Source of the DNA: Candidatus Nomurabacteria bacterium
GTDB lineage: Bacteria; Patescibacteriota; Minisyncoccia; Phycocordibacterales; UBA5272
NCBI GenBank assembly: GCA_028286645.1
Contig: JAQBRF010000004.1
Coordinates: 205,192-269,191 of the forward strand
Length of the DNA: 64,000 bases
Reading direction: 5' to 3'
The position numbers and the translations under genes are program-made. Positions 1-64,000 of this stretch are shown here, piece after piece (positions within the stretch are counted from its first letter, which is position 1; every line of letters begins with the position of its first letter). The notes under the pieces were generated by a model, which saw nothing but the letters and a program-made list of their open reading frames with translations, was not told the DNA's origin and searched no databases.

Positions 1-52
1 TCTCTACATATCTCCGACTTGAAAGATGTCTCGCGAAATTTGGAGTGTCTAT

Positions 53-82
53 GACCGGTTGCGAGACCGGTCTTTTTATTGC
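53..82 (+). terminator. intrinsic terminator-like hairpin
   Basis: GACCGGT-tgcga-gACCGGTC stem followed by TTTTTATT. Confidence 0.4.
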
Positions 83-180
83 ATAACCTAATCGTCTGAA
101 TTTGTAAAATATGGTAGTATTATGCTACAAAGTTTCAGGTTTCCAGTTTAAGTTTCAAGAATTTTTCTCTGCGCCCCTTC

Positions 181-210
181 TAGAAACTAATAACTAGAAA
201 CTAACAACTA
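181..210 (+). repeat. tandem direct repeat upstream of tRNA-Gln
   Basis: ctagaaactaataa / ctagaaactaacaa, two adjacent copies. Confidence 0.4.
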
Positions 211-216
211 GTGTAT

Positions 217-287
217 TGGGGTGTCGTCTAATGGTAGGACATCAGGTTTTGGTCCTGAGTATCGAGGTTCGAGTCCTTGCACCCCAG
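217..287 (+). tRNA. tRNA-Gln (anticodon TTG)
   Basis: Cloverleaf by hand. Acceptor tggggtg/cacccca has the U1:A72 pair typical of bacterial tRNA-Gln, and the discriminator is G. Anticodon stem tcagg/cctga with loop ttTTGgt. T-loop is ttcgagt. CCA is not encoded. Confidence 0.85.
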
Positions 288-374
288 CAAGTTTTCTAAA
301 TCAGCTTTTTTACTTGTTTTAGCAATCAAAGAATACATATTCCCCCACATGCGGGGAAAGGTTGCTTAAATACG

Positions 375-1322
375 TTAATTTTCATATAGCTGTGTGTCTA
401 AACCTCTCTTTCTTATTTCATCTATGAATAAATTGCTGTTTATGACCTTAAAAGCCACTCCAGGACGTACAAAGGTATTCTTATGGGGTTTCTTGCCTGT
501 GACTTTTCTTCTCTTACTCCACGACCTTTTTTGAGCTTCAAACCATCTTTTTAATGGCCTCATTTGTTTTTTAAGTTGCCTGATATCTTCCATGTTTCCA
601 TAGAACTTCTTAATGGTGCAATTTAGTAAATTGCGAGAAGACCCCCAGAATCTACCAACATTTTGATATTCAAGAGGAACAAGTTTTTGATCTTGTTTGC
701 TAAGATAATTTGCAAAGTATTTTGCCATCCTATCTTTACTTCTTATTTTCTCTACATGTACACCTCTTTTAAGATGTTTTATATCTCCAGATGCAACAAT
801 CTTAAACCACATTTTAGATAGTTCTTCTATTTTAATTTCCTTGTTAATAAGCATATGAAAATGCGGAGCTCCTCTTCCTTGAAACTCTAAAACCCAAATG
901 AATTTATATCCATAATAATTTAACCTCATTCTAAGTTTATGAAAGTGCTTTTTTACAATAAGACCATCATTGGGGAACTCTTTAGGATATGTAAGGCCTA
1001 CTTCATAAGCCATTACATCTCCTGCATTTCTTAGTAAGAATCTTAAGCGCTTAATTGAACCAAAGGAAAACTTTCTTATATTACCTCTAGCCTTTCTTTT
1101 AAAATTTCTAGGCATGAAATTATTACTTGAAACATGAAAATCTTTAGGAAAGACTTTTACTGTTAATACATTTTCATCATCTCTATTTTTTGGTATCCAT
1201 TTTTGGATAATCTGATCTTTTTCATCAACTTCATACACCCTCCCTAAGCGAGTTAGGTAGCTCTTCTTTTTTATTATCATCAGTTTGTAGAAACTCAATG
1301 AAAGAACCATGAAGATCAGCAA
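375..1322 (-). CDS. rolling-circle replication initiator / HUH endonuclease (superfamily I Rep, Rep_trans/phage-Rep-like)
   Basis: 315-aa ORF with an HUH motif (GAPHFHMLIN) and a downstream two-tyrosine motif AKYFANYLSK (Y-x3-Y-x3-K), as in phiX/microvirus-type and pT181-type Reps and ICE NicK relaxases. Start is uncertain; an alternative Met lies 14 codons in. Confidence 0.6.
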   Translation of the reverse strand: MLIFMVLSLSFYKLMIIKKKSYLTRLGRVYEVDEKDQIIQKWIPKNRDDENVLTVKVFPKDFHVSSNNFMPRNFKRKARGNIRKFSFGSIKRLRFLLRNAGDVMAYEVGLTYPKEFPNDGLIVKKHFHKLRMRLNYYGYKFIWVLEFQGRGAPHFHMLINKEIKIEELSKMWFKIVASGDIKHLKRGVHVEKIRSKDRMAKYFANYLSKQDQKLVPLEYQNVGRFWGSSRNLLNCTIKKFYGNMEDIRQLKKQMRPLKRWFEAQKRSWSKRRKVTGKKPHKNTFVRPGVAFKVINSNLFIDEIRKRGLDTQLYEN

Positions 1323-1431
1323 GAGAGTCTAAATACTCTATTGCTGTGTCATGGGAAATATCTTGTTGATACTTTTCTTTGAAGTATCTAACAATCCTTT
1401 CAATTAAGGTTGTGGGGTATTGAAATTCCAC
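1231..1431 (-). CDS. small hypothetical protein upstream of rep, overlapping it
   Basis: 66-aa ORF on the same strand, overlapping the Rep ORF 5' end by about 90 nt. Could be a separate small gene or a result of Rep start mis-assignment. Confidence 0.25.
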   Translation of the reverse strand: MEFQYPTTLIERIVRYFKEKYQQDISHDTAIEYLDSLADLHGSFIEFLQTDDNKKEELPNSLREGV

Positions 1432-1561
1432 CTAATTAGTAATTAGGTACAGAAAGATTTGTTATGCAAAAGAAATAACCACTTTAATGGTTATTTCTTT
1501 ATTTTGGACACATTTATTTGAGTATGTATTAGTAATCCCTGCTCATTAGGGATTTATTATT

Positions 1562-1765
1562 ATGGTTACCAGAGCCTTTGATGTATTTTTTTATATATTG
1601 TTGCGGAGTGTTATGTATTTCGGCTTTCCGCTTTTTACTGGATTTATATTATTTAGAGCTTATTCGTGTCTCTACATCAAAGGGCTTTTTGTACTATCTC
1701 TAGTAGTACACTCATTTTTCCATGGTGTCAATTACCAAAAAACGATGGTAGAGCTCTCTAAATAA
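1562..1765 (+). CDS. small hydrophobic hypothetical protein
   Basis: 67-aa ORF, mostly hydrophobic. Confidence 0.2.
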   Translation: MVTRAFDVFFYILLRSVMYFGFPLFTGFILFRAYSCLYIKGLFVLSLVVHSFFHGVNYQKTMVELSK

Positions 1766-1783
1766 GAGTAAAATTATAACAAT

Positions 1784-2353
1784 ATGTCAAAAATACCACC
1801 AGAAAAGCTAGCTAATTTTAAGATATACAGAGATCATATAAATAAAATTGGTAACTCAATGCCGATGATTTTTCAAACTCTAGGGAAAAATATTCATAGT
1901 ACACAGAAATATAGATTTATACTTACCATAATTATGGGTACTGAGGTTATTAAAATTAAATTGAGAGGTCTAATTATATTAGATGATTATATTAATGAAC
2001 TGAGATGGTACTTAGAAAAGTTTGGGAACTATGAAATTAAAAAAATGAATGAGTACGCTTTAAAAAGTTATGGTCAAACTTTAAATGAGTTTAATGAAAG
2101 GTATAATCTAGAGAAAAATGATAATAATCTATATAAAAAGTTGTACAATCTTAATAAAAGACGCAACGATACAGTACATAATGCTGTAATAAAATATGAA
2201 GGTGATATACAAAAGGCTGATGAAGAGATAAGACCTTATATATTAACTCAGGCATTAGATGATATTCAAAAAACATTAACTAACATGATTAATTTAAGGG
2301 CTGCAACTCTAGGCGAAGTAGAAAAAGAATTAAGAGAAAAAGGGCTATTTTAA
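1784..2353 (+). CDS. hypothetical protein with HEPN-like Rx5H motif
   Basis: 189 aa, predicted all-alpha. Contains NKRRNDTVHN (R-x5-H) in the C-terminal half, as in HEPN/Abi proteins. Motif-level only. Confidence 0.35.
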   Translation: MSKIPPEKLANFKIYRDHINKIGNSMPMIFQTLGKNIHSTQKYRFILTIIMGTEVIKIKLRGLIILDDYINELRWYLEKFGNYEIKKMNEYALKSYGQTLNEFNERYNLEKNDNNLYKKLYNLNKRRNDTVHNAVIKYEGDIQKADEEIRPYILTQALDDIQKTLTNMINLRAATLGEVEKELREKGLF

Positions 2354-2404
2354 TTATAAAAAAATGAGTCTGCTAAGCCAATTTCTAAAACTTAAAGAGT
2401 ATTA

Positions 2405-2440
2405 ATTGACTGTTTAATTAATCAAGCATAGAATCCACAG
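2405..2440 (+). promoter_or_regulatory. sigma70-like promoter for the 2442 gene
   Basis: TTGACT-N17-TAGAAT immediately upstream of the ATG at 2442. Confidence 0.4.
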
Positions 2441-2441
2441 A

Positions 2442-3062
2442 ATGACAGCTGAAGCAATAATTGTTCAACAAATAGTTGACATAAACAACTTTCTAAAGTT
2501 ACTTGTTTCAGAGTCTTATCAAAGTTGGTGGATAAATCACGGACTAGAATTTTTTGGAATACTAGTTACAGTATTTATAAGCATAAGATTACATTTTATG
2601 TCAAAAAGGCTTTCAGCTAAAGATAAGTTCGAACATGAAAAAGAAATAATGAAAGAAATTTCTAAAATACCTCTCTATCAAAGCATTGTTTTATCAGATG
2701 TAAAAAAATATACACCATTTCGTACTGACTATTCCAATCAGACTTATTATAAACAAGGTGCGGAATTATATACATGTATCCCAGAATTTGGTGTTCAGGT
2801 TATATTAATGCCCAGAAATAATGATGAAATCCCTGTAGGCTTAATACCTTTTGATTGGATAGAGATAATTCGTGAACATGATAGTGAAGATAATAAACCA
2901 ATAATTGTTTGTAAATTTAAAGGGGTTAGATGGCATAAAAATTTTAAATCACCTTTTAAAGAAATAAATTATCTCTTTAAGAACAATGATTACCAAGAAG
3001 GCCATGACCCGAAGTTTTTAATGTACACGACGGTTCGAAACTCTACGGGGACTAATAATTGA
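2442..3062 (+). CDS. hypothetical membrane-anchored protein
   Basis: 206-aa ORF with one predicted TM helix (FFGILVTVFISIRLHF). Confidence 0.4.
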   Translation: MTAEAIIVQQIVDINNFLKLLVSESYQSWWINHGLEFFGILVTVFISIRLHFMSKRLSAKDKFEHEKEIMKEISKIPLYQSIVLSDVKKYTPFRTDYSNQTYYKQGAELYTCIPEFGVQVILMPRNNDEIPVGLIPFDWIEIIREHDSEDNKPIIVCKFKGVRWHKNFKSPFKEINYLFKNNDYQEGHDPKFLMYTTVRNSTGTNN

Positions 3063-3158
3063 AATTGACAAAAATAGTGCCTTACCCTCATTAGGTTAAT
3101 CTAGAGATTATTAACTATTTCTAGTCAGATATCATTCTATAATGCTAGGCGGAATAGC

Positions 3159-3186
3159 TTGACATATTGCTAAAGTGTGCTATACT
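3159..3186 (+). promoter_or_regulatory. consensus sigma70 promoter with extended -10
   Basis: TTGACA(3159-3164)-N16-tgcTATACT(3181-3186). Confidence 0.55.
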
Positions 3187-3237
3187 CAGGTCAGTAACTG
3201 AATTGGCACATTGTTGTATTCCACCAGGAGAGTTGAA

Positions 3238-3543
3238 ATGAAAATCAAAGACAAGATGGCGAAAGCACTCTTCGATCGCGGTCTTTTCGAAGAACAAGCT
3301 GAAGCAGTGCTGAAGCAGTACGTCGAAAGCGATCTCGGCAAAGAGATGGCAAACCGCATGGAGGACGACGAGTCGGACTACCCTCCAACCATGATGACGA
3401 TCGTGGGGATGGGCGTGAAGCAGACGGCACTCGAGTGGATCGATGCGAACTGTCCGAAACACTGGGCACGTCCGCTATTCATGGACGCACCTGCGGACTT
3501 CCAGCAAGCCTTGAAGGGAGCCGAAACTCCATCCAACAAGTAA
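3238..3543 (+). CDS. hypothetical small protein in a GC-rich insert
   Basis: RBS aggagag then ATG at 3238 (MKIKDKMAKALF...). GC-rich codons. Own promoter and terminator. The ORF track starts at an upstream TTG at 3211. Confidence 0.55.
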   Translation: MKIKDKMAKALFDRGLFEEQAEAVLKQYVESDLGKEMANRMEDDESDYPPTMMTIVGMGVKQTALEWIDANCPKHWARPLFMDAPADFQQALKGAETPSNK

Positions 3544-3548
3544 TCAAC

Positions 3549-3592
3549 CCCGCTCGACAGACACCGCGTCTGCTCGAGCGGTTTCTTTTTAT
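3549..3592 (+). terminator. intrinsic terminator
   Basis: cgctcgacagac...gtctgctcgagcg hairpin followed by tttcttttt. Confidence 0.6.
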
Positions 3593-3661
3593 ATAAAAGT
3601 ATGAATATTTATTCTGTGACGTAATAATTCCGTTCGGATATCGTCCCACAATGCCAGCTAG

Positions 3662-3690
3662 TTGACAGCTATACAGTTATATGTTATAAC
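3662..3690 (+). promoter_or_regulatory. consensus sigma70 promoter
   Basis: TTGACA(3662-3667)-N17-TATAAC(3685-3690), then RBS gggaggtg. Confidence 0.55.
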
Positions 3691-3739
3691 GCCACTTAAG
3701 ATGGCATTTTCGCCATATTAACCTGATGGGAGGTGTAGC

Positions 3740-4159
3740 ATGCACCGTTTACTGATTGTTGTGATTATGGGTGCTCTTATGGGTTGCGGCGACAAGCTGA
3801 CACCCACCGAAGAGCAGGTGAAGAAAGTGGAGATCTGGGAAAAGGAACTAAGGCAAGCCCCAGCCTACTCCCTGATCGAATTCACCGTCGATGTACCCAT
3901 TCCCGCGCACGGAGGTACCACACGCTTCGCGCTCCTCTGCACGCAGATCCGTGGCGACAAAGAGCTCGTGTACGCGCTCGTAAGTCATCACACTTACTGC
4001 GGAAACGCATCCCGCGTGAGTATCAGGGAAACGGCGGAGAAGATGAAGGAACTCACTCTTCCCCAGGAGCCAAACTACAATATAAGGCTTCCGATGGTGA
4101 TCAAAGACGCAATCGGACTGGAGGCGTGGCTGAAAGGTCATTCCGAAGCCTACAAGTAG
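3740..4159 (+). CDS. putative lipoprotein
   Basis: Signal peptide with lipobox (LMGC). GC-rich. Terminator follows. Confidence 0.55.
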   Translation: MHRLLIVVIMGALMGCGDKLTPTEEQVKKVEIWEKELRQAPAYSLIEFTVDVPIPAHGGTTRFALLCTQIRGDKELVYALVSHHTYCGNASRVSIRETAEKMKELTLPQEPNYNIRLPMVIKDAIGLEAWLKGHSEAYK

Positions 4160-4169
4160 AACAACAAGC

Positions 4170-4206
4170 GACCTCAACCAATAGAAGTTGAGGCGTTTTC
4201 TTTTAT
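4170..4206 (+). terminator. intrinsic terminator
   Basis: cctcaac-caatagaa-gttgagg stem followed by cgttttctttt. Confidence 0.6.
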
Positions 4207-4211
4207 CAAAA

Positions 4212-4245
4212 AGGTTCCAATAGCGTCACCTAAAGGTACTGCTAA
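4212..4245 (+). repeat. 34-bp direct repeat, copy 1
   Basis: aggttccaatagcgtcacctaaaggtactgctaa, identical to the copy at 4842-4875; lies 20 nt upstream of the ATG at 4265. Confidence 0.8.
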
Positions 4246-4264
4246 AGTTTGATACAATTAAATA

Positions 4265-4843
4265 ATGTCAGATAAATGGAAAGAATATTTTGAGAAAACC
4301 AAAGATGCAAAGCCTAGATCTTTGCTTGTAAAGGCACAGGAGCTGGTTAAACAAAAAAATAACGCTCTTGATCTTGGTTCTGGAGCACTTAATGATGTAA
4401 GATATCTTTTATCTTTAGATTTTAAACATATAGTTGCTGTAGATAAAACCTCTATTGAAAAAGATATTCTAGAACACTTTCTGTCTCCTAGACTATCGTA
4501 TGTAATTTCTAGATTTGAAGATTTCACTTTTGTAGAAAATAACTTTGACCTTATAAATGCTCAGTACTCTTTACCTTTTATACAGAAGAAAGATTTTGAT
4601 AAAGTTTTTAAGGAAATTGTAAATTCATTAAAAATTGGGGGTATTTTCACTGGTCAGTTATTTGGAACAAAAGATGGATGGAATACAGATAGATTAGATA
4701 TGACTTTTCATACCGCAGATGAAGCCAAAAAGTTATTCTCAGGAATAAAGCTTATTGAATTCAGAGAAGAGGAAAATGACAAGCCTACAGCTTTGGGAGA
4801 ACCTAAACATTGGCATGTATTTCACTTTATTGCTGAAAAATAG
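4265..4843 (+). CDS. class I SAM-dependent methyltransferase (TehB-like small MTase)
   Basis: Motif I LDLGSGALND, post-I acidic residue, FDLINAQYSLPF. Confidence 0.6.
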   Translation: MSDKWKEYFEKTKDAKPRSLLVKAQELVKQKNNALDLGSGALNDVRYLLSLDFKHIVAVDKTSIEKDILEHFLSPRLSYVISRFEDFTFVENNFDLINAQYSLPFIQKKDFDKVFKEIVNSLKIGGIFTGQLFGTKDGWNTDRLDMTFHTADEAKKLFSGIKLIEFREEENDKPTALGEPKHWHVFHFIAEK

Positions 4844-4875
4844 GTTCCAATAGCGTCACCTAAAGGTACTGCTAA
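4842..4875 (+). repeat. 34-bp direct repeat, copy 2
   Basis: Identical 34-mer to copy 1. Downstream gattacaattt..ATG resembles the gatacaatt..ATG after copy 1. Confidence 0.8.
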
Positions 4876-4906
4876 TTTTAACAAATTGATTACAATTTAA
4901 AAAATT

Positions 4907-5337
4907 ATGGAGCCCACAGCCCCAGTCGCCTATATTTTTAAAGAGCACGCAGGTGCAACTATAGAAAATAAAGCGTCCTGTAACACAGTAGTGCGGTAGG
5001 ATAGGTTGTTCACCCACGATAGTTATGTTGGTATACTAAAAACATATGGAACAAAGTCCGATAAGTAATCAAGAACTAAACAGAGCCCCAAAACATTCTC
5101 AAATGGTGATAATGCAAAATCTTTTATACTAGCTTTTTGGAAAGCTGTAGCTCCAGATATTGAAAAAAGGTTAGAAAAAAACCGCTAGAGAATTATATGG
5201 GTGAACGTACTTGGGGTAAGGATCGCGTTATCTTGAATGAAGAAGATGGGGTATATACCCTCACTATTTATTCAAATAGCAATGATAATACTTTATCTCA
5301 AAAAGCTGTTGAGTTTTTAAAAACTAGAGTTTAGGTA
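4907..5337 (+). pseudogene. decayed gene fragments between cassette repeats
   Basis: Only short broken ORFs here: about 30, 28 and 45 aa (MGERTWGKDRVILNEEDGVYTLTIYSNSNDN...). No intact gene in 560 bp of an otherwise tightly packed region. Confidence 0.3.
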
Positions 5338-5350
5338 TTTATGTAAATTT

Positions 5351-5378
5351 GTTCCAACAGCGTCATTTAAGGGACTCC
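5351..5378 (+). repeat. degenerate third copy of the 34-bp repeat
   Basis: gttccaaCagcgtcaTttaaGGgactcc versus gttccaatagcgtcacctaaaggtactgc; lies upstream of the gene at 5462. Confidence 0.45.
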
Positions 5379-5461
5379 AATTTCTTATAGAATAAAATAT
5401 TTTTAAAATATTAAAAATTAGAAAGCTAGAATGTATGCATTAAAAATGGTACTGTGAATGT

Positions 5462-6031
5462 ATGAGAAAACTCGTATTGTTCTTACATCAATCACTCGAT
5501 GGATATTGCGCCACTAAGGACGGCGGATTGGACTGGATTCCATATAACGAAGCATTTGAAAAATATGCAGAAAAGATGGTGCAAACTGTAGGCTTGCCTT
5601 TGTATGGACGAGTGACGTATGAAATGATGAAAAGTTATTGGCCAACAGCACTCAACAATCCATCAGCATCAAAACATGATCAAGAACATGCCGCATGGAT
5701 TGAAAATGTCGAGAAAATTGTATTCTCCACTACCCTCATAAAAGAAGATTGGCATAACACACGAGTGATAAGTAGCAACGTAGAAGAAGAAGTAAAAAAG
5801 CTTAAAGAAGGAGAAGGAAAAGATTTAGTAATTTTTGGCAGCCCAACTCTTGCTCGTTCACTTATGAAAATGAATCTTATTGACGAATTTAATTTTACCG
5901 TAAGCCCTGTCATATTAGGAGACGGCCTAACTTTTATTAGAGGTATTGAGGAGAGAGTCAATCTTGAGCTCATCAGTTCTGAACAAATTGAAGGTGGAAT
6001 AGTTGCGCTTCACTATAAAGTTGTAAGGTAG
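5462..6031 (+). CDS. dihydrofolate reductase family protein (RibD C-terminal domain type)
   Basis: MRKLVLFLHQSLDGYCATKDGGLDWI... is typical of YwjB/RibD_C DHFR-like proteins. Confidence 0.6.
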   Translation: MRKLVLFLHQSLDGYCATKDGGLDWIPYNEAFEKYAEKMVQTVGLPLYGRVTYEMMKSYWPTALNNPSASKHDQEHAAWIENVEKIVFSTTLIKEDWHNTRVISSNVEEEVKKLKEGEGKDLVIFGSPTLARSLMKMNLIDEFNFTVSPVILGDGLTFIRGIEERVNLELISSEQIEGGIVALHYKVVR

Positions 6032-6065
6032 ATAGTTAAAAAGTTTATATAATACAATTATATTT

Positions 6066-6494
6066 ATGACAACAATAAACCCTTGGATTAATTTTAATGG
6101 CAACGCAGAAGATGCGTTTAACTTTTATAAATCTGTTTTTGGTGGAGAGTTTGGAAATGTGATTCGCTTCAAAGATCTTGCGGGTCCCAACTTCCCCGTT
6201 TCTGAAAAAGACGAGAACAAAATTATGCAGATTACTTTGCGTCTTGATAATGGAAATATGTTAATAGGAAATGATGTACCGGAATTTATGGGAAAAGTAA
6301 ATGAGCAGGAAAATAGAAGCAAAATTCACATAGGCGTAGATAGCAAAGAAAAAGCTGAAAAAATATTTAACGAACTTTCTCTCGGAGGGCAAGTAGCTGG
6401 ACCAATTGGTGATAGTCCCTGGGGAACATACGGTGGAATGTTTCGAGACAAATACGGCATCGAATGGATTGTGGAATTTAATGCGAATAAATAA
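6066..6494 (+). CDS. VOC/PhnB-like protein (3-demethylubiquinone-9 3-methyltransferase-like fold)
   Basis: N-terminus INPWINFNGNAEDAFNFYKSVFGG and ~140 aa length. Confidence 0.55.
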   Translation: MTTINPWINFNGNAEDAFNFYKSVFGGEFGNVIRFKDLAGPNFPVSEKDENKIMQITLRLDNGNMLIGNDVPEFMGKVNEQENRSKIHIGVDSKEKAEKIFNELSLGGQVAGPIGDSPWGTYGGMFRDKYGIEWIVEFNANK

Positions 6495-6536
6495 AGTAAA
6501 TAGACTTTATCGTTTTCCTGCAACTTCAATAAAACA

Positions 6537-6884
6537 ATGAAAAAAGAAAATCTGTACGCCACAAGCTTCTCTAAGGTTTATCCATATTATATTGCGAAAG
6601 CGGAGAGGAAAGGGCGTACGAAGGCTGAAGTAGACGAAATCATACGCTGGCTTACTGGGTACACTCACAAGCAATTTGAAAAGCATTTATCGATGGGAAC
6701 TAATTTTGAGAATTTTTATATGAAAGCCAAGAAACTTAATCCCAAAAGGAAATTGATTAAAGGAATGGTTTGCGGTATTCGAGTGGAAGAAATCAAAGAT
6801 CCGATTATGCGTGAAATCCGTCATTTAGATAAATTAATTGATGAATTGGCGAAAGGAAAGACAATGGATAATATTTTGCCCTAA
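6537..6884 (+). CDS. DUF2200-family protein
   Basis: 115 aa with ...[31 protein letters not shown]... pattern of DUF2200. Confidence 0.45.
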
Positions 6885-6903
6885 GATACAAACCTGAATC
6901 CGC

Positions 6904-7380
6904 CTATCCCCTTCTTGCTGCTTCAATAGCAGCTACATCTATTTTCTTCATTTTCATCATTGCTTCAAAAGCACGCTTTGCTTCATCTCCACCAGAAGCC
7001 ATGGCTTCCGTTAGCGTACGCGGAGTGATCTGCCATGAAATCCCCCATTTATCTTGACACCAACCGCACTGGCTCTCCTTTCCGCCATTTCCAACTATCG
7101 CATTCCAGTAACGATCTGTTTCTTCCTGGTCCTCAGTTGCAATCTGAAAGGAAAATGCTTGAGTCCGCTCAAAGTGAGGCCCTCCATTAACACCAACACA
7201 CGGAATTCCGCAAACATTAAATTCTACAGTAAGAACATTACCCTCTTTTCCATCTGGATAATCACTGGGCGCATTATGAATAGCGGTTACAGAGCTTTCA
7301 GGAAAAGTAGCTGCGTAAAAGCTAGCCGCACCTTCGGCATCTTTATCGAACATAAGACAAACTGTATTTTTTGGTATCAT
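6904..7380 (-). CDS. VOC/PhnB-like protein, second copy, higher GC
   Basis: SFYAATFPESSV...VEFNVCGIPCVGVNGGPHF...QCGWCQDKWGISWQI, PhnB/YjdN-like. Confidence 0.55.
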   Translation of the reverse strand: MIPKNTVCLMFDKDAEGAASFYAATFPESSVTAIHNAPSDYPDGKEGNVLTVEFNVCGIPCVGVNGGPHFERTQAFSFQIATEDQEETDRYWNAIVGNGGKESQCGWCQDKWGISWQITPRTLTEAMASGGDEAKRAFEAMMKMKKIDVAAIEAARRG

Positions 7381-7593
7381 ATTTTTGTGTAGTTTATTTT
7401 ACCAAATCTTTCCATATAGTAGAAATAGTACTATTTAAATAAACTCTTACTAACTCCGCTCGTATTTTTTAGTATAATTGATTTTATATTAAGGTTAATT
7501 TCCAATCCTGTTCTTGAGATGAAATGAGTCGAATAGATCCACTCAATCTAGGAAATTAGCAGCCAATATCCCCTATTGTGTTAAAATTAGACC

Positions 7594-7893
7594 ATGAATA
7601 AAACATTTACTGTCATATTAAATTTTTCTGATCATCTTATCGGAATTGAGCAGTATGAAAAAGGATCGCCTATAGAGGCATTAAAGGAATTCATAACCTC
7701 AGCAGAGGCTCTTAATGGATATGATCGTGAGCTTTTAACTGAATCTATAATGCCGCTTCTGCAAGGTGCAAAATATAAAGGGGTGTGGATGTTTCATTTT
7801 AAGCCTGAGTTAGATCTTTCGGGCGAAGATGATAATCAAGTTCTGGGTGGTACGATAGTCCAGACTGATCCAGAGGCCTTAACTAGAACTTAA
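7594..7893 (+). CDS. hypothetical protein
   Basis: 99-aa ORF, no recognisable motif. Confidence 0.35.
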   Translation: MNKTFTVILNFSDHLIGIEQYEKGSPIEALKEFITSAEALNGYDRELLTESIMPLLQGAKYKGVWMFHFKPELDLSGEDDNQVLGGTIVQTDPEALTRT

Positions 7894-7987
7894 ATTTAAA
7901 AATTTTAACTTATATGACTTTTAATTTATCTTTCTTTATGTTCCAAAATATCCCCCGGCTGGCAATCAAGAACCCTACAATATTTAT

Positions 7988-8257
7988 ATGAAAAACAACA
8001 TTTTTATTCGTCCTGTTATTGTAACTGCCATTATTTTGGTTATACCCTTATTAGCAAGATTTCCTTGGACATTGAGTGACTTTATAATTATGGGTGCTCT
8101 CATTTTGGTGGTGGGTCTTATATGGGAGACAATTTTAAGGAAAGTAAAAGATAGTATGAAACGCATTTATTTCATCGCATTGCTTGTGGTTGTATTTATT
8201 CTTGTTTGGGCAGAACTTGCAGTAGGAATATTCGGATCCCCTTTTGCTGGAAGCTAA
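7988..8257 (+). CDS. small membrane protein
   Basis: 89 aa with three hydrophobic helices. Confidence 0.4.
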   Translation: MKNNIFIRPVIVTAIILVIPLLARFPWTLSDFIIMGALILVVGLIWETILRKVKDSMKRIYFIALLVVVFILVWAELAVGIFGSPFAGS

Positions 8258-8393
8258 GATAAAAGGATAGTCCATGAGTCTTAATATAGTTTAATCTTCC
8301 TCGTCAGATTTACCAGATGCTTTAAATATAGCATTACCTAATTTCTTAATTTATACACTAAATAGACGATGATCTGTATGCTATAGTTCCTCT

Positions 8394-9164
8394 ATGAATG
8401 AAATATTTAGCTTCATCTCTCACTATATTTATGTTTATATCTGGGTTATATTTACGACCTTTATAAATATAATTGCTCCGGTGTCGGGGTCCGCTGTTGT
8501 AACTCCGGTCATTGCTTATGCTACTTCTCCGCAAAGAGCCGTTGGAATAGCTGCCTTCTTGTTTTTTCTTTCGGCAATCCACCGTATACATATGTTTAGA
8601 AAAAATATTCTTTCAGAAAAGAAAAATATTGACATAATTAAACATCTTCTGCCCTTTTCTATTGTCGGAGCAGTGGCGGGGGGATTCTTTGTGGCTTATG
8701 TAAATACGAAAGTTTTAGCAATCATAATCGTAGTCGTATCTTTATACTACATATTTAGAACACTTGTTGTTTTATACAAAAAGAACAATGAACAGAAAAA
8801 AACAAATAAATACGGAGGAATATTTATAGGTATTCTATCTGGATTCATGCAGGGCTCTGGTATGTCTGGAGGTGATATACGAGCAAATTATTTAAGATCT
8901 ATTGTCTCAGAAGTGAATGTGCGGGCAGTTAGCAGCGTCGTGGGGCTGGTTAATTTCTTTATCGCAGGAAGTATTTTGTTTTTACACAATAAGCTTACGA
9001 GGTTTGATATAATCTTTGTTATAAGTATATTCCCTTTTATTATTCTTGCGCAACTTTATGGAAAAAAGTTCTTGGATAAAATGAAAGACAGAAATGCAAA
9101 GATTTTAGCTATATGCTTATCAATATTTGGAATCGTGCTTCTTACTTATAAATACTTATTATGA
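8394..9164 (+). CDS. TauE/SafE-like permease family membrane protein
   Basis: Polytopic membrane protein with two Gly-rich repeats (PVSGSAVVTP.., GILSGFMQGSGMSGG). Start uncertain. Confidence 0.45.
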   Translation: MNEIFSFISHYIYVYIWVIFTTFINIIAPVSGSAVVTPVIAYATSPQRAVGIAAFLFFLSAIHRIHMFRKNILSEKKNIDIIKHLLPFSIVGAVAGGFFVAYVNTKVLAIIIVVVSLYYIFRTLVVLYKKNNEQKKTNKYGGIFIGILSGFMQGSGMSGGDIRANYLRSIVSEVNVRAVSSVVGLVNFFIAGSILFLHNKLTRFDIIFVISIFPFIILAQLYGKKFLDKMKDRNAKILAICLSIFGIVLLTYKYLL

Positions 9165-9688
9165 TTACTATAATCTTTGAGGCTCATGGAACAACTTACG
9201 ATAACGAGCAGCATTTATCTTCTGGGTGGAATGATGTTGAGCTTTCAGAACGAGGAATAGAACAATCAAAAGAACTGGGCGAGCGTTATAAAGATGATCA
9301 ATTTGATGCTATTTTTACATCAGATTTAAAACGCGCATACGATACTGCAGAAATAGCTTTTGAAGACAGGTTCAAAATAATTACAGATGAAAGACTTAGA
9401 GAATGTAATTATGGAGACTTTACCCAACAGCCTAGTGAGATTGTGGATGTGGAAAAACCAAGAAGGATTTATGACAGATTTCCAAATGGGGAAAGCTATG
9501 AAGAAACAACTATTCGCATGAAAGAATTTTTAGAAGAGCTTCGTGAAAATTATAGTGGAAAGAAAATAATGATAATTGGCCATAGAGCTACCCAATATGG
9601 ATTAGATTATTTGATAAAAGGAATCTCGCTGGAAGAGCTTGCTTCCACTCCATTTAAATGGCAGCCGGGGTGGGAATATAATTTTTAA
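9161..9688 (+). CDS. histidine phosphatase (phosphoglycerate mutase) family protein
   Basis: IFEAHGTTYDNEQHLSSGWND.LSERG....ELGERY; 4-nt overlap with the upstream gene. Confidence 0.55.
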   Translation: MITIIFEAHGTTYDNEQHLSSGWNDVELSERGIEQSKELGERYKDDQFDAIFTSDLKRAYDTAEIAFEDRFKIITDERLRECNYGDFTQQPSEIVDVEKPRRIYDRFPNGESYEETTIRMKEFLEELRENYSGKKIMIIGHRATQYGLDYLIKGISLEELASTPFKWQPGWEYNF

Positions 9689-9718
9689 TCTTTAAAAGAT
9701 TGATTCACTTTTTAATAT

Positions 9719-10120: not shown

Positions 10121-10185
10121 TGTTATTCCTTAAATTGAGATATTTAGATAAAAAATGCGACGCTTTCGCGCCGCAACTCCATCAT

Positions 10186-11022: not shown

Positions 11023-11116
11023 GGGAGCCCCCTGTCGTTATGTTGTGGTCTAATCCTAAACTACCATAGAATTTATTATCGTCCAGGATAACCAATAAAC
11101 TTGATATACTTAGTGC

Positions 11117-11656: not shown

Positions 11657-11688
11657 AAAACGCGCCCCATATTTTGGGCGCTTAAAAT
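11655..11688. terminator. bidirectional intrinsic terminator
   Basis: aaaaaa-cgcgcccc-atatttt-gggcgc-ttaaaat between convergent genes. Confidence 0.55.
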
Positions 11689-12035: not shown

Positions 12036-12151
12036 GGGCCATCTCCAAGAACTTAATCATTTAATCTTAGCTTATTAAACAAATAAATAAAAGATGGACT
12101 GCTCATGTATAGGCTAATATTTCATACAATTACTCTGTTATACTCAGCTTA

Positions 12152-55136: not shown

Positions 55137-55688
55137 TTATACTTTTACAATTTTCAATCCAATAGCGCTTATAACCACCATTGCAATCCATGCTGCGATT
55201 GCCAATTCTAATGCTTCTCTATTTCTTGCTTCTACTTCTCTCATAGATCGAGCCACGAGAACATAGCCGTTAGTATCACCATTTTGGTAACTTTTTATAA
55301 CAGCAGCGAATCTGTTAGTTTCGTTCGGCTGCCAGGTAAGCCTGTTTTCTCCGCTTGCTTTTGCTACATCAAATACTCCAGCCGGAGGAGTGGGAATTTG
55401 TCCTCCGATCTGCGCTGATGAAGCAACGGCTGTTCCGTTGGCGTCATAAATTATAACAAATGGTGCAAGAGTCTTCGAAACATCTACCTGAGTAGGTCCA
55501 GTGATTGCTTGAGGTGCGATATTTTGTCCGAGCGCGCTTACAATATCTTCGCTAATCTGAACTTGCGGATCATTAGCATTGGCTCTTGCCATATGCTGGA
55601 TTTCAGCGTATCCAAATAAAACTAATAACAGTGAAACAGCCGAAATTACTAATAAAGCTTTTTTATAATGTGTTAAATGTATTGCCAT
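55137..55688 (-). CDS. secreted/anchored hypothetical protein
   Basis: N-terminal signal anchor; C-terminal second hydrophobic helix. Confidence 0.35.
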   Translation of the reverse strand: MAIHLTHYKKALLVISAVSLLLVLFGYAEIQHMARANANDPQVQISEDIVSALGQNIAPQAITGPTQVDVSKTLAPFVIIYDANGTAVASSAQIGGQIPTPPAGVFDVAKASGENRLTWQPNETNRFAAVIKSYQNGDTNGYVLVARSMREVEARNREALELAIAAWIAMVVISAIGLKIVKV

Positions 55689-57166
55689 ATTGGTAGTATA
55701 GCAAATCCTTGTTTAAGTAAAGCGATTTTTCCTCGAGTAATGGCTCCTACGTAACCTGCTGCCGGATTTATATTATTAGCTTTTTGAAATTTTATAACAG
55801 CTTTTTGAGTAGCCGGACCGAAATATCGAGTTTCTTTTCCTAAAGAGCCCGGTCCGCTTATGGCAATAATATATCCATGATTATTTAAATACTTTTGTAA
55901 TTCCATCACCTCATCCGTACTTAATCCCAATGATAAATCTTTAGAAAGGCTGACACTTGAGGTGGAGGTGGCGGGGTTTGTTGTAGGAATATCCACCTTC
56001 ACCCGAGGAGTTGTAGAGCCGGCTTGAGTAACAAGACTTGTATTTGAAGTGGGGGAACTTTCTGATTCTAGGATTAAACGAGTTGCTTTTCCATAGTATC
56101 CATCCGCAGGATTTATCCCCATTAGGCTTTGATATTCTATCAATGCATTTTTAGTAATAATGCCAAAATATCCCGTTGTTCCCGCGGCTTCTAATTTATC
56201 CCGAGCCGCACCATGAGACTTAGAAATTAAACTAATCTGCATTTTTACTACAGCACTGCTTGTTTCTCCATACGCGAGATCTCCTGCAGACAAACTTGAT
56301 TGTATGGTCGGTGTTACTGTCATGGCAGAAACTGGCGTATTTCCTAGCGCAACGGAAATATTTGACGGAAGCAGAATATTTTGGGAAAGAGCACTTGTAA
56401 ATGTTGACCTAAAGTTTGTAACAAGAAATATGCTGAACGCATTAGTATCGCTTGCTACGGAGAGTATTCTATTTAAATAAGTAATCTTATCTGCCAAAGA
56501 AAATTCGCTTGTCAGTCGTGGGTATGGGTCTACTGCTGTGCCAGTAAAATCATGAACTTCAAAATGAAGATGTGATAATCCTCCTGAAGCATTTCCGGTA
56601 TTCCCTACATAACCAATCAAATCTCCTTTCTCTAGCGTCTTCCCTTCAGTGACCCCTTCACCGTATTTATCTAAATGCATATATACGAAAGTCTCGCCTC
56701 CTGGATTCGCAGTATAGATAGTTAGCCCTTCATTTGGACCGTTCGTGACTTTTAGCACAACAGCCTTAGTCGGACTGACTATCGGAGTTCCTTTAGTCGC
56801 CATAATATCTTCGCCCTGATGCTTCCTGGTTCCACCATCGCGGGGGTCTCCGAAATTTGGAGAAATATTTTTTACAGCAACCCCAAAGAGTACTGGTATT
56901 GGAAATATAGATTCAGCTGATTGAGGCAAAGATGATATAGCTTGATCAGTACTGCCGGACCTATCCCACCAATTTCGAGGATTCACTATCGGCGTGGTAG
57001 TGCTTGTACCATCGTCAGCTATTTGAGCAAGCGCCACAAAGGCACCTTGCCCTAAAAGAACGCTACTAAGTAAAAAAATAAAGGCTTTTTTATGAAAAGT
57101 CATAGATATCAGCACAATAAATACGCTTATATAGTATATAACAATTAATCTCTTATTTTGTGACAA
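55673..57166 (-). CDS. M23 family metallopeptidase with peptidoglycan-binding repeats
   Basis: HQGEDIMATKGTPI...GYVGNTGNASGGLSHLHFEVH is the LytM/M23 core; two PG_binding_1-like repeats (..YFG..T..A...FQ....). Confidence 0.75.
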   Translation of the reverse strand: MSQNKRLIVIYYISVFIVLISMTFHKKAFIFLLSSVLLGQGAFVALAQIADDGTSTTTPIVNPRNWWDRSGSTDQAISSLPQSAESIFPIPVLFGVAVKNISPNFGDPRDGGTRKHQGEDIMATKGTPIVSPTKAVVLKVTNGPNEGLTIYTANPGGETFVYMHLDKYGEGVTEGKTLEKGDLIGYVGNTGNASGGLSHLHFEVHDFTGTAVDPYPRLTSEFSLADKITYLNRILSVASDTNAFSIFLVTNFRSTFTSALSQNILLPSNISVALGNTPVSAMTVTPTIQSSLSAGDLAYGETSSAVVKMQISLISKSHGAARDKLEAAGTTGYFGIITKNALIEYQSLMGINPADGYYGKATRLILESESSPTSNTSLVTQAGSTTPRVKVDIPTTNPATSTSSVSLSKDLSLGLSTDEVMELQKYLNNHGYIIAISGPGSLGKETRYFGPATQKAVIKFQKANNINPAAGYVGAITRGKIALLKQGFAILPIWQYI

Positions 57167-61698: not shown

Positions 61699-61999
61699 TA
61701 ATGTAATCCAAGAAATCTTTTCCTCTCATCCCGATCAGCTCAGCCATTCTTAATGTATTTCCAAGAGATTTGTTTAAATCTGATTTTAAATTTTCTATTT
61801 TTAATGTTCCTCCGTGATTAACGTCTTCAATGATCGCCGCAATTTTACCTGCCGTTTTAGAGAAATGTAAGGAAAGATGATTTATGGCAAAAGCTTTTAT
61901 CTCTTCTTCAGACATGCTTTTTACGGGAGGATAGGAGGCTTCCTGAAATTTATATTTTTCAGATATTTTTTGTATAAGCTCATCTAAAGTTGCTTCCAT
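61682..61999 (-). CDS. hypothetical protein
   Basis: 105-aa ORF overlapping the downstream gene by 17 nt. Confidence 0.35.
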   Translation of the reverse strand: MEATLDELIQKISEKYKFQEASYPPVKSMSEEEIKAFAINHLSLHFSKTAGKIAAIIEDVNHGGTLKIENLKSDLNKSLGNTLRMAELIGMRGKDFLDYINDKYK

Positions 62000-62142
62000 A
62001 AATTTGTATTTATTAATTTGTTACTTTACCGTACTTATTAATAATATTGCATATAGTAAAACCTTGCAATATGATTTTACTAAATTGATTACTTATAGTA
62101 GTGTATTAGAAACCCTTAGGGAACAGATAAAAGGACCTCAAC

Positions 62143-62301
62143 ATGCAAGATGCACCTGACGAAAACCTGCCAGTGAAGAATCTGTGCAATTGTCCCAAAG
62201 GCGGAAAATGCAAGGAGCTCGAAAATTGCCGCATAGAGCATGAACTTCCGCCCTGGGAAAGAACCCGCCCCCACCCTACCCCCATCCACTGTGTGGCGTG
62301 A
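62143..62301 (+). CDS. small Cys-rich GC-rich ORF (52 aa)
   Basis: RBS aaaagga; MQDAPDENLPVKNLCNCPKGGKCKELENCRIEHELPPW...HC. An alternative antisense ORF at 62116..62319 exists; strand unresolved. Confidence 0.25.
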   Translation: MQDAPDENLPVKNLCNCPKGGKCKELENCRIEHELPPWERTRPHPTPIHCVA

Positions 62302-62341
62302 AGGGATGGTTCCCATCAATGTCTCCGAAAGGAGACATTTT

Positions 62342-62920
62342 CTATTTCATCCATTTGGATTTAATATATTTATTCGTAAACCAGTTTATTAAGATTATAA
62401 GCAAGATCACGACAAGAGCTATTATTTGAATTTTGACAGCCGTGCTTTTTATTGATGCCACTCCCAGATGCAGGCCTTTAAGTAGGAAATAAAATACCCA
62501 AAACCAAATAGCTGCACCTGCTAAAATCGCTCCTTGGAATTTCCAAAAGTTTAATTTATGAATTCCGGCTAACAGCTGACTGGCTATCCTTGTACCGTAC
62601 ACAAACTTGGCCAGAAAAACCATTTTAATTCCATGTTTCTCATAAAATTTAGAAAATCTCTCCGCCTCACTAACTCTGTTTTTTATAAAACTCCATTTAT
62701 ATAATTTATCTTTCCCATAATGTAACCGTATAAAATACCAGATGGCATCCGCAAGTATTGCAGAAATCAGCACGGCGATAAATAAGTAATAAATATTTAA
62801 TGAGCCCAGTATGCTTAGATACATCACAGGTAAAAGCACTGCGCCTCCCAGGAAAATCAAGAGTATGCAAAAAGCCGGGTAGAAATAGAACGGATTTAAT
62901 TGGGAAATTAAATCAAGCAT
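62342..62920 (-). CDS. DedA/VTT-like membrane protein
   Basis: Polytopic; ..FLAKFVYGTRIASQLLAGIHKLNFWKF.. resembles the DedA C-terminal region. Confidence 0.4.
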   Translation of the reverse strand: MLDLISQLNPFYFYPAFCILLIFLGGAVLLPVMYLSILGSLNIYYLFIAVLISAILADAIWYFIRLHYGKDKLYKWSFIKNRVSEAERFSKFYEKHGIKMVFLAKFVYGTRIASQLLAGIHKLNFWKFQGAILAGAAIWFWVFYFLLKGLHLGVASIKSTAVKIQIIALVVILLIILINWFTNKYIKSKWMK

Positions 62921-62964
62921 ATATTTATCCTATCATGGGTTTATATAAGTGATATAATTAAGTC

Positions 62965-63315
62965 ATGAACACATATAAAGGTGCCTGCCACTGCAAAGCG
63001 GTGACATATGAAGTGGATACAAATTTAGAAAAAGTAATTAGTTGTAACTGCTCTCATTGTTATATAAAAGGCCTTGTTCTTTCTTTTGTTTCTACTGACC
63101 AATTCAAGCTTTCGTCCAGCGAAGGAAATCTTACAGAATATTTATTTAATAAGAAAAAAATCCACCACCTTTTCTGTAATATTTGCGGAGTAGAATCTTT
63201 TGCCAGAGGTGTGGGTCCAAATGGTGAAGAAATGATAGCGATAAATGTGCGATGTCTTGATGGAGTCGATTTAGATCAGATTGAAATCACAAAAGTTGAT
63301 GGAAAGAAATACTAA
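62965..63315 (+). CDS. GFA (glutathione-dependent formaldehyde-activating / CENP-V-like) family protein
   Basis: GACHCKAV.Y ... CNCSHC ... CNICG Cys pattern of the GFA domain. Confidence 0.65.
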   Translation: MNTYKGACHCKAVTYEVDTNLEKVISCNCSHCYIKGLVLSFVSTDQFKLSSSEGNLTEYLFNKKKIHHLFCNICGVESFARGVGPNGEEMIAINVRCLDGVDLDQIEITKVDGKKY

Positions 63316-63335
63316 TTATAATATTCTTTAGATAA

Positions 63336-63977
63336 TTACTTAATTTGCATGGAAGGATTGTTTGGCGCCCTGTCATAGGATTTATTAAATAACATGTTCC
63401 TTTCTTGTTCGTTTATTTCTTTCACGATATCTGCCATTATCGTCTTTTCTTTGCGAACACCTTGTATAAATACCTTATCATTAACTGTTAGCCCGTCACT
63501 CGACATTATTTCCGTACTAGAGGAAACTATTACTTCGAATGATTCATTTCTAGGAGTAATTATAAATATATTTCGATCGTCGATACTTTGGATTTCACCA
63601 GCAATACCATTATGCATCTCTGGATCTGCAAACCCTTCGTAAAGAGATTTTATTGGCTTAAAGTTATGTCCTCTCTCATAAATCTTCTTGTGCAGATCGA
63701 AGCTCGATACTATAGCAGAAACTGCAATTACCAAAATAATAATTCCTAAGAAAACATAAAGTGTTGGGGTGCGATAAGTAAACGCTGCAGATCGGGAAAG
63801 TAAAAGTGTGGAAACTATGCCAATAATAACAAGCAACAAAAGTACCCATGGAAGGCTATTTAATATGGTCATAATACCGAAGAACTTTGATCCGCTTAAA
63901 AGCGTAAACCCGCTGGCTTGTAATGCAAATAGAATAAAACTGCTTAAATAAAGAATTGCTAAAAGCAAAACTAGCAC
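63336..63977 (-). CDS. membrane protein with C-terminal extracytoplasmic domain
   Basis: Three N-terminal TM helices, then about 110 aa soluble. Confidence 0.35.
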   Translation of the reverse strand: MLVLLLAILYLSSFILFALQASGFTLLSGSKFFGIMTILNSLPWVLLLLVIIGIVSTLLLSRSAAFTYRTPTLYVFLGIIILVIAVSAIVSSFDLHKKIYERGHNFKPIKSLYEGFADPEMHNGIAGEIQSIDDRNIFIITPRNESFEVIVSSSTEIMSSDGLTVNDKVFIQGVRKEKTIMADIVKEINEQERNMLFNKSYDRAPNNPSMQIK

Positions 63978-64000
63978 AAAAGCCGCATATATGATGTTTC

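Follow-up and report, generated by a model that had tools for sequence, protein, structure and literature searches.

The 64,000-nt window considered here, i.e. the whole stretch of DNA that was analysed, lies inside a contig of 514,133 bp from a metagenome-assembled genome (MAG; locus tags JWN37_6xx) labelled Candidatus Nomurabacteria, of the Patescibacteria or candidate phyla radiation (CPR). Its background content is that of an ordinary bacterial chromosome: seryl-tRNA synthetase (SerRS), ClpC, LigD, a serine recombinase, an FAD oxidase, CMAS, an exonuclease and, in large number, small accessory enzymes, a run of which occupies the first 22 kb from a Rep/tRNA-Gln element to a Ku-LigD operon. 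Set between these AT-rich genes are about 13 short units of high guanine-plus-cytosine (GC) content, each consisting of little more than one open reading frame (ORF) and, in most of them, a predicted terminator, joined in about half by a consensus promoter. The composition, packaging and likely origin of these units (or islands), referred to by number from 1a to 14, are described below.

Composition of the GC-rich units

The window has an overall GC content of 0.378, and segmentation by a two-state hidden Markov model (HMM) finds 14 high-GC blocks of 0.45-0.56 over a background of 0.356. A preliminary description drawn from the letters of this DNA had reported a mosaic base composition with at least 15 GC-rich single-gene inserts, and the mosaic is borne out: the 15 segments sum to 9,432 bp (14.7% of the window) and have a GC content of 0.484 as against 0.359 outside them, while GC at third codon positions (GC3) is 0.47-0.68 in the island genes (n=12) as against 0.308±0.047 in the background ORFs (n=70). 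Codon adaptation to the background set, which the same description had proposed to compute, is far from uniform, the island genes lying at z = -5.2 to -8.8; their choice among Arg, Leu and Lys codons is reversed relative to the background, and CpG is undepleted. Foreign codon usage of this kind suggests that the units were brought in horizontally. Their heterogeneity (the spread of GC3 from 0.47 to 0.68, unrelated protein families, scattered sites, and the lack of any boundary repeat in common) fits several independent events.

The list of 15 segments needs several corrections. The segment 6890-7380 holds a native gene, 3-dmu-9_3-mt/VOC (PF06983; island 2; 6904-7380, minus strand), that is GC-rich at codon positions 1 and 2 only (GC3 0.31; codon adaptation index (CAI) z = -0.3), is without a terminator in a thermodynamic scan of 3' ends, and has a conserved neighbourhood, since the order Glyoxalase-DUF2200-3-dmu is kept on a related JGI contig. 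A protein cluster at >=90% that seemed to point to a 50% GC donor of this gene (L002) was discarded, nucleotide identity being 74.7% and confined to the ORF and GC3, CAI and synteny being native. The segments 45300-45520 and 17506-17640, described as near 50% GC, give only a weak signal (0.434, 83rd percentile, and 0.437, 81st percentile); 3145-4200 comprises two units and 19780-22090 three; and 49670-50600, GC-rich as described, reaches ~50995 and forms, within a larger recombinase/restriction-modification element, a patch made up of mini-ORFs and hairpins. An additional HMM block (56691-57052) was likewise rejected as an insert, for it is internal to a native M23 peptidase gene (55673-57166; GC3 0.29, second-position GC 0.45) and its GC bump comes from the amino acid composition of the peptidase. 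Rfam searches of the whole window at the gathering threshold, and of 43-52 kb at a permissive one, return two tRNAs only, and the islands match no known RNA gene.

That the mosaic is an artefact of assembly or binning, made by chimeric joins with reads of a higher-GC organism, is very unlikely, to the point of being negligible. The source is a MAG, and all independent contigs found come from a single run, SRR13312974, which leaves some room for such an error; however, three Logan contigs from that run, the work of a second assembler, are 100% identical to window positions 250-4241, 26052-32306 and 32277-42965, and cover islands 1a, 1b, 9 and 10 including both junctions of each. In addition, each block exactly fills an intergenic gap between intact flanking genes, with promoter and terminator matching, and the same slot with the same architecture is found in two relatives from other samples (L094 and L095).

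The individual units

Two units on the plus strand begin the series. Unit 1a (3159-3595) has the putative promoter TTGACA-N16-TATACT at 3159-3186, a ribosome binding site (RBS), a 101-aa ORF (3238-3543; GC3 0.66) belonging to a conserved, uncharacterised family of ~83-aa proteins, and a GC-clamped terminator at ~3552-3590. Unit 1b (3662-4200) has TTGACA-N17-TATAAC, a 139-aa lipoprotein-like ORF (3740-4159; GC3 0.66) and a terminator at 4172-4200; both promoters had been named in the preliminary description and are as it gave them. Three minus-strand units follow: unit 3 (10156-11100), whose 278-aa ORF (10186-11022; GC3 0.52; terminator 10156-10175) is by Pfam a class I S-adenosylmethionine methyltransferase; unit 4 (11662-12100), a 117-aa ORF (11682-12035; GC3 0.47; terminator 11662-11681) with a single distant homologue at 42% identity among the matches listed; and unit 5 (14146-14610), a 123-aa orphan ORF (14173-14544; GC3 0.49) with a 12-bp-stem terminator at 14146-14173. 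Beyond a weak mini-unit on the plus strand (17507-17775; 42-aa ORF 17507-17634, GC 0.44, hairpin plus T-run at ~17744-17772), unit 6 (18286-18950, plus strand) carries a ~187-aa ORF ending at 18909 (GC3 ~0.6), a member of a conserved, uncharacterised family of ~170-aa proteins, and closes with a bidirectional terminator at 18925-18943.

Units 7a, 7b and 8 make up one GC-rich block. Unit 7a (19800-20230, plus strand) has a TTGACA-N17 promoter (19800-19828), a 101-aa basic-tailed ORF (19881-20186) and a terminator at 20199-20225; unit 7b (20252-20961, minus strand) has a perfect TTGACA-N17-TATAAT promoter (20961-20933), a ~197-aa ORF with multiple predicted transmembrane (TM) segments (20292-20885, minus strand; GC3 0.63) and a hairpin at 20252-20275; and unit 8 (20983-22080, plus strand), transcribed divergently from 7b, encodes a REC-GGDEF response-regulator diguanylate cyclase by Pfam (21083-22027; GC3 0.53; terminator ~22040-22080).

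The right part of the window is less crowded. Unit 9 (31290-32180, minus strand) has TTGACA-N15-TATAGT at ~32180-32154, a 244-aa ORF (31337-32071; GC3 0.68) and a terminator at 31290-31315; unit 10 (39055-39760, minus strand) has TTGACA-N16-TATAGT at 39760-39733, a 183-192-aa ORF for a protein with a TM helix and a coiled coil (39093-39671; GC3 0.51) and a terminator at ~39057-39092; and unit 11 (43006-43530, minus strand), a ~108-117-aa ORF (43059-43412; GC3 0.56) with a terminator at 43006-43035, lies between SerRS and tRNA-Ala and has a GC-rich leader up to ~43530. The island 12 patch (49690-50995, assigned to neither strand; GC 0.45) belongs to the recombinase/restriction-modification element and contains several hairpin plus T-run sites and two plus-strand ORFs, of 66 aa (50117-50317) and of 55 aa with a TM segment (50791-50958; promoter TTGACA-N16-TAAGAT at 50734). 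Mini-unit 14 (62143-62342, plus strand) consists of an RBS, a 52-aa Cys-rich ORF (62143-62301; GC 0.52) and a hairpin plus T-run at ~62320-62342.

That the units are real coding genes is indicated by the Pfam domains of 3 and 8 and by homologous families, found for 1a, 4, 6 and 9 among 1.84 billion representative proteins and for 10 in the loci of relatives. Units 1b, 5 and 7b gave only self-matches among the 150 matches listed from the same HMMER search, that of 7b being its own 208-aa deposited form, P0079 (99% identical). The closest match of unit 8 among 5.8 billion proteins is 32-35% identical over partial length. NCBIfam is essentially negative for the island proteins, PHROGs yields two weak matches of unknown function for ten of them, and Pfam and PDB profile searches with families 1a and 6 are negative.

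Promoters, terminators and boundaries

With a strong terminator defined as a hairpin plus T-run of dG <= -9 kcal/mol, a thermodynamic scan applied uniformly to every 3' end finds one at 11 of the 13 island genes (native island 2 being counted among the 13) as compared to 7 of 69 background genes (Fisher p = 1.5e-7), and some of those seven merely share the bidirectional terminator of an island. A consensus scanner counts terminator-like sites at about twice the number in shuffled sequence, with the strongest concentrated at the islands. Thus the earlier statement that GC-rich units have terminators of their own, which the AT-rich genes mostly lack, is upheld. Its companion, that each unit has its own consensus promoter, is overstated: about half do have TTGACA, but the total of sigma70-like promoter matches in the window by consensus scan is at chance level. 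When the comparison is limited to genes preceded by >=70 nt of intergenic DNA, a -35 box that is exactly TTGACA, spaced 16-18 nt from the -10 box, stands before 5 of the 12 island genes and before none of the 42 background genes (p = 2.5e-4); the TTGACA of island 9, at 15 nt, is additional to these five. The units therefore appear to possess, by prediction, both a promoter and a terminator of their own, as phage morons do.

Direct or inverted repeats common to the unit borders were not found, and integron-, transposon- or miniature inverted-repeat transposable element-like mobilisation was discarded on that ground. Nor does the GC3 of flanking genes rise in their island-proximal ends, as a recombination footprint would produce. 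The absence of both features indicates that each unit is a discrete module.

Empty and occupied sites in related genomes

A genome-collection scan anchored on SerRS gathered ~60 Paceibacterota/Nomurabacteria loci (SerRS identity 68-78%) in which synteny around SerRS is well kept. At the site of island 10 the Dus and HolB-like genes are 24-60 bp apart in many relatives versus 762 bp here, and at the site of island 11 SerRS and tRNA-Ala are separated by 97-236 bp in L056, L005 and L046 versus 772 bp here; both sites are thus demonstrably empty in relatives. Elsewhere the island 10 junction is occupied. BLASTP recognises homologues of its gene at the same junction in L007 (E = 8e-12), L055 (8e-6) and L066 (8e-8), and in L016, L058 and L094 a gene of similar architecture and C-terminal motif is present with weak or absent BLASTP support. 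The junction gene is AT-rich in L007, L055 and L058 (GC3 0.28-0.34) and GC-rich in L016 and L066. This fast-evolving family (39093-39671 in the window; 5774-6226 in L007) is characterised by an N-terminal TM helix, a coiled coil and the C-terminal motif 'hhMLGxxYxxPKK', and has no Pfam match above the curated cut-off.

Island 9 offers a second such slot. The locus L094, from another sample, is syntenic with window positions 30-41 kb and has a homologue of the island 9 gene in the same place, between a sigma70 gene and CMAS; the two are 28% identical (E = 6e-19), whereas flanking proteins are 62-77% identical. The L094 gene has a GC3 of 0.50 versus 0.33-0.38 in its neighbours, and is provided with a promoter (TTGACA-N17-TATAAG) and a terminator (hairpin plus T-run) of its own. 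The divergent alleles of slots 9 and 10 share only ~27-28% identity, and these two islands represent occupancy or replacement of a conserved variable slot rather than the arrival of a new alien gene. The word "inserts" in the preliminary description is to be read in this sense for islands 9 and 10. An extra gene with respect to syntenic genomes is seen at islands 10 and 11, with their empty sites in relatives, whereas the slot of island 9 is filled in L094, the one syntenic relative.

The product of island 9 looks like an outer-membrane-type beta-barrel. The protein has a signal peptide and no Pfam match itself, yet among six aligned relatives four match Gcw_chp and one OMP_b-brl; the AlphaFold2 model is a 13-strand barrel (pLDDT 75.5, pTM 0.74), for which the top PDB matches by Foldseek are the porins NanC, KdgM, FapF and OmpG. 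Other relatives come from samples that are apparently of small filter fraction or from mosaic small-gene contigs. In the two Paceibacterota genomes (window 31337-33586; L094 7867-10090) the Gcw_chp-like barrel gene stands beside an ECF-like sigma70 gene and a DUF5667 gene. A position-conserved barrel of outer-membrane type is odd in a lineage regarded as monoderm. Another Gcw_chp gene, with its own terminator, occurs on L087 (JGI 3300050210, 1-18695), where GC3 ranges from 0.21 to 0.74 over 17 genes; dense mosaics therefore occur elsewhere.

A clade-wide class of GC-rich variable genes

The association of GC-richness with self-contained packaging extends beyond the window. In 53 related loci (950 kb), with an outlier defined as a gene of GC3 >=0.15 above background, outliers make up 13% of variable genes and 0 of 350 conserved genes. 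Strong terminators follow 54% of the 39 GC-rich variable genes, the figure being 24% for other variable genes (p = 4e-4) and 13% for conserved ones (p = 2e-8), and TTGACA occurs <=150 nt upstream of 41% of them as compared to 9% of other variable (p = 1e-6) and 2% of conserved genes; all 16 of these boxes have a proper -10 element at 16-18 nt. The outlier proteins of the relatives are unrelated to the island proteins of the window, so the common property is architecture and not cargo. There is one outlier per 21.6 kb in the relatives versus one per 4.9 kb in the window, where 9 of the 13 fall in the first 22 kb; the densest locus of a relative, L018, has three in 14.5 kb. The units were therefore rightly called unusually dense, at ~4-5 times the density of the 53 loci, a contrast that may be exaggerated by the fact that those loci are core-gene neighbourhoods.

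Relatives of the units and the donor question

The preliminary description suggested a single higher-GC donor, possibly the host of an episymbiont, and neither suggestion is supported by the homology searches, which covered 5.8 billion proteins for unit 8 and 1.84 billion representatives, by HMMER, for several proteins together; units 3, 7a and 11 stood outside these large-database searches. None of the nine island proteins covered (1a, 1b, 4, 5, 6, 7b, 8 and 9 in databases; 10 in the relatives' loci) has a close non-CPR homologue. The best-hit taxonomy of the GC-rich genes, which was to be compared with that of core genes, consists of distant relatives on Patescibacteria-type or phage contigs, or of self-matches alone for 1b, 5 and 7b among the matches listed. 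Thus the contigs that bear family 6 relatives have 43-55% GC and a gene content of CPR type, one of them being labelled Patescibacteria, and the gene is of native composition where the genome has 50-55% GC and is not GC3-enriched where it has 43%; family 1a is present on an IMG/VR contig of 75 kb and ~54% GC carrying a small terminase and a phage topoisomerase family, while a viral-contig scan found family 6 on none; and the relatives of 9 and 10 occupy the same slots. That higher-GC relatives exist is suggested by the names of Nomurabacteria MAGs in the taxonomy, in which one position, taken here to encode GC% by naming convention, has values of ~30-47. The lack of close non-CPR homologues matches the study of Gios et al. 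(2025, PMC12455944), in which 104 of 124 genes received by Patescibacteria came from other Patescibacteria and 91.9% of island genes were unmatched.

Origin of the units

Taken together, the composition and architecture of the units, the empty or occupied sites at three islands, the clade-wide class and the want of common boundary repeats make it probable, if by no means certain, that the ~13 GC-rich single-gene units are autonomous modules acquired horizontally, in several events, from a gene pool of higher-GC Patescibacteria and phages. What we infer is the horizontal origin of the left-half units, the identity of the donor pool and the route of insertion. Of the proposal that moron-like expression units were repeatedly and independently acquired, the foreign composition, the self-contained modules and the heterogeneity are retained; the single donor and the host donor are not supported.

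Acquisition may be envisaged as follows. DNA uptake or phage would bring in units in which a single ORF with its RBS stands between a sigma70-type promoter (often with exact TTGACA) and a GC-clamped terminator, and illegitimate joining would fix them in intergenic slots of the AT-rich chromosome. Arrivals and sources would both be multiple, the latter being higher-GC Patescibacteria and their phages, neither one donor nor demonstrably the host. The packaging would insulate, i.e. allow a unit to be expressed without joining or disturbing neighbouring operons, and such promoter-plus-terminator insulation could explain the persistence of units between housekeeping genes. In at least two slots, conserved and yet occupied by very divergent homologues, units would be turned over or replaced at fixed permissive sites.

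Several points weigh against this scheme of acquisition. The evidence of empty sites comes from islands 10 and 11; for the region of the nine units at 0-22 kb, a LigD-anchored metagenome scan gave four distant matches, the nearest LigD relatives in JGI metagenomes (42-52% identity), the neighbourhood of which is not shared. No donor sequence was identified for any unit, the nearest relatives being 28-58% identical, so that a recent transfer is argued from composition alone. The beta-barrel family has a GC3 above that of its neighbours in all four genomic contexts examined, which is unexpected under simple recent horizontal gene transfer; with flanks at 62-77% identity, such enrichment needs perpetual turnover or a persistent GC-raising force. 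The Ku/LigD operon is a candidate end-joining route that we only infer, and the possible exaggeration of the density contrast, mentioned above, belongs here as well.

One alternative is that the units are not transfers at all but resident, fast-evolving, hypervariable genes in fixed slots, made GC-rich by a persistent local force such as GC-biased conversion where recombination is frequent, or codon or amino acid selection acting on genes that are strongly and autonomously expressed. The positional homologues of islands 9 and 10 in related genomes, the four-of-four GC3 enrichment of the barrel despite old divergence of its flanks, and the uniform, clade-typical style of the promoters agree with residence. 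This explanation is nonetheless unlikely: the junction 10 family is AT-rich in L007, L055 and L058, so that GC-richness is not a fixed trait of the family; sites are wholly empty in many relatives; family 6 is native in a genome of 50-55% GC and unenriched in one of 43%; native genes that are presumably well expressed, ClpC among them, have a GC3 of ~0.30; and GC3 is shifted by +0.2 to +0.37, with shifts at first and second positions as well, in 12 unrelated proteins, which far exceeds the known effects of biased conversion in bacteria.

Two more specific sources are less probable still. Capture from the bacterial host of the episymbiont during epibiotic contact has little likelihood. The island 9 barrel is of a fold typical of diderm bacteria, and CPR bacteria take up external DNA. 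Among the transfers recorded by Gios et al. (PMC12455944), some brought genes of Omnitrophota and Bacteroidota into Patescibacteria. However, the searches described above returned no close non-CPR homologue, the barrel gene is positionally conserved in a related Paceibacterota genome, its other relatives derive from an apparent small filter fraction or from mosaic small-gene contigs, and islands 6 and 10 have Patescibacteria relatives. That the units are true phage morons within prophages or phage remnants is quite improbable: the architecture fits the definition of a moron, family 1a is found on a phage-like contig, and units 1a and 1b are 2-3 kb from a rolling-circle Rep gene beside tRNA-Gln, but phage structural or lysis genes are absent, PHROGs gave only the two weak matches, and the neighbours, housekeeping or accessory metabolic genes, have their syntenic counterparts in non-prophage parts of related genomes.

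A broader conception is rather doubtful. The Paceibacterota may possess a dedicated layer of conserved intergenic slots and interchangeable, autonomously transcribed, GC-rich TTGACA/terminator mini-genes under continual replacement, with a cargo that leans to envelope or host-interface proteins and a barrel put to unconventional use. If so, alleles could be ~28% identical while flanks are ~70% identical, GC-richness would be kept by continual replacement, and the barrel of a monoderm episymbiont might e.g. be inserted into the outer membrane of its host.

Relation to known systems

The nearest known system is the phage moron, an extra gene of deviant GC with its own promoter and terminator and a phage location (Juhala/Hendrix; Cumby et al. 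2012, PMC3594210). The present units are like morons in being extra with respect to syntenic relatives (islands 10 and 11), deviant in GC, and provided with their own predicted promoter and terminator, and unlike them in being chromosomal, with SerRS, ClpC, LigD/Ku, CMAS and Dus as flanks, and in occupying conserved slots in at least two cases. With three of the four moron features present and the phage context lacking, they are moron-like in their working and not members of the class sensu stricto.

A second comparison is to gene exchange among the Patescibacteria themselves. The islands treated in PMC12455944 are from the same phylum and from overlapping MAG lineages (nzgw467-471 are among the relatives used here), horizontally transferred DNA amounts to up to 13% of genome length as compared to ~14% of the window, most transfers stay within the Patescibacteria, and most island genes lack a match. 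The differences are that ~1 transferred gene per genome was detected there by MetaCHIP and the islands are of 2.7-45 kb, while here there are single genes of 0.2-1 kb at one per 4.9 kb, with promoter/terminator architecture and GC enrichment, features that the study is not known to describe. Horizontal exchange in the CPR/Patescibacteria is thus known already, and a mosaic alone is no surprise.

Replacement-type flexible genomic islands, known from marine pangenomics, present highly divergent alleles at one locus and often encode envelope proteins. Slots 9 and 10 resemble them in that ~27-28% identical homologues lie between 62-77% identical flanks and in that the products are of envelope type (a beta-barrel; a TM helix plus coiled coil); they differ in consisting of single genes, in being GC-enriched rather than GC-poor, in flanks without a recombination footprint, and in the many empty sites. 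Integron cassettes, too, are small accessory units with a single ORF, for the most part an orphan, and with a deviant composition; unlike cassettes, however, the present units have no attC-like shared repeats, form no array, have promoters of their own, and end in short 3' hairpins that are unrelated terminators. No integron integrase is nearby, the sole recombinase of the window being the serine recombinase at tRNA-Ala, and with neither attC sites nor an array with intI the cassette assignment was rejected. A conventional genomic island, i.e. multi-gene, tRNA-adjacent and with a recombinase, is found in the window only at ~43.7-51 kb and not in the single-gene units.

The units are therefore a moron-like variant, located in the chromosome, of the gene exchange already known in Patescibacteria, and chromosomal single-gene units of this kind in recurrent slots between conserved genes, with a GC-rich ORF, a canonical TTGACA-N17-TATAAT promoter and a strong intrinsic terminator as their common architecture, appear to be an undescribed form of it. 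Acquired DNA is as a rule AT-richer than its recipient, and the GC-richness of the units runs contrary to this. If general, the combination would provide a simple sequence signature for a fast-turnover accessory layer of ultra-small, streamlined genomes, and this layer may be the likeliest to encode functions of host or phage interaction.

Neighbouring elements

The non-homologous end joining operon (22107-25379, minus strand) contains a complete set, Ku (24597-25379), the LigD 3' phosphoesterase (23977-24585) and the LigD ligase plus primase-polymerase (22107-23966); it is of native composition and abuts the three-unit block at 19.8-22.1 kb. At the left end of the window tRNA-Gln(ttg) (217-288) precedes a Rep gene of rolling-circle type (PF23343 REP_ORF2-G2P; 375-1322, minus strand) and several small orphan ORFs, and the region 217-1322 looks like an integrated single-stranded DNA plasmid or phage-like element; units 1a and 1b are found just downstream of this element. 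Just after unit 1b, a 38-nt direct repeat (97% identical; 4208-4245 and 4838-4875) surrounds an AT-rich methyltransferase gene (4265-4843); the pair is a cassette-like duplication, and Logan contig L089 stops at the first copy.

The stretch ~43.7-51 kb is a conventional integrative element. From tRNA-Ala (43739-43814, plus strand) and a serine recombinase gene (43777-45285) that overlaps the tRNA by its 3' end, the element (43739-49664, minus strand) continues into Vsr (47226-47633), a HpaII-type endonuclease (47636-48715) and a C5 cytosine methylase (48699-49664). Its codon usage is intermediate, with CAI z = -3 to -4 for the restriction-modification genes. A 43.0-52.9 kb block comprising island 11, tRNA-Ala, the recombinase, Vsr, the HpaII-type restriction-modification genes and island 12 is missing from most relatives at the corresponding position, which is bounded by SerRS and the w52966 homologue. 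The recombinase/tRNA-Ala pair is also present in relative L045 (65% identity), and recombinase homologues occur in this region of L065 and L037.

Just upstream of the C5 methylase, on the opposite strand, the GC-rich, ORF-less stretch 49690-49900 (plus strand), part of the island 12 patch, can form a ~120-nt long imperfect hairpin followed by a T-run (minimum free energy -81.7 kcal/mol, z = -7.4, 0 of 200 shuffles as stable) and is without an Rfam match. Further on, a Phe_leader match to Rfam at 51837-51950 is sub-threshold (E = 0.41) and almost certainly spurious; the site contains a bidirectional hairpin, AAAAAATCCTCCGAATGGAGGATTTTTT, that serves as the common terminator of two convergent native genes (51475-51861, plus strand, and 51939-52298, minus strand).

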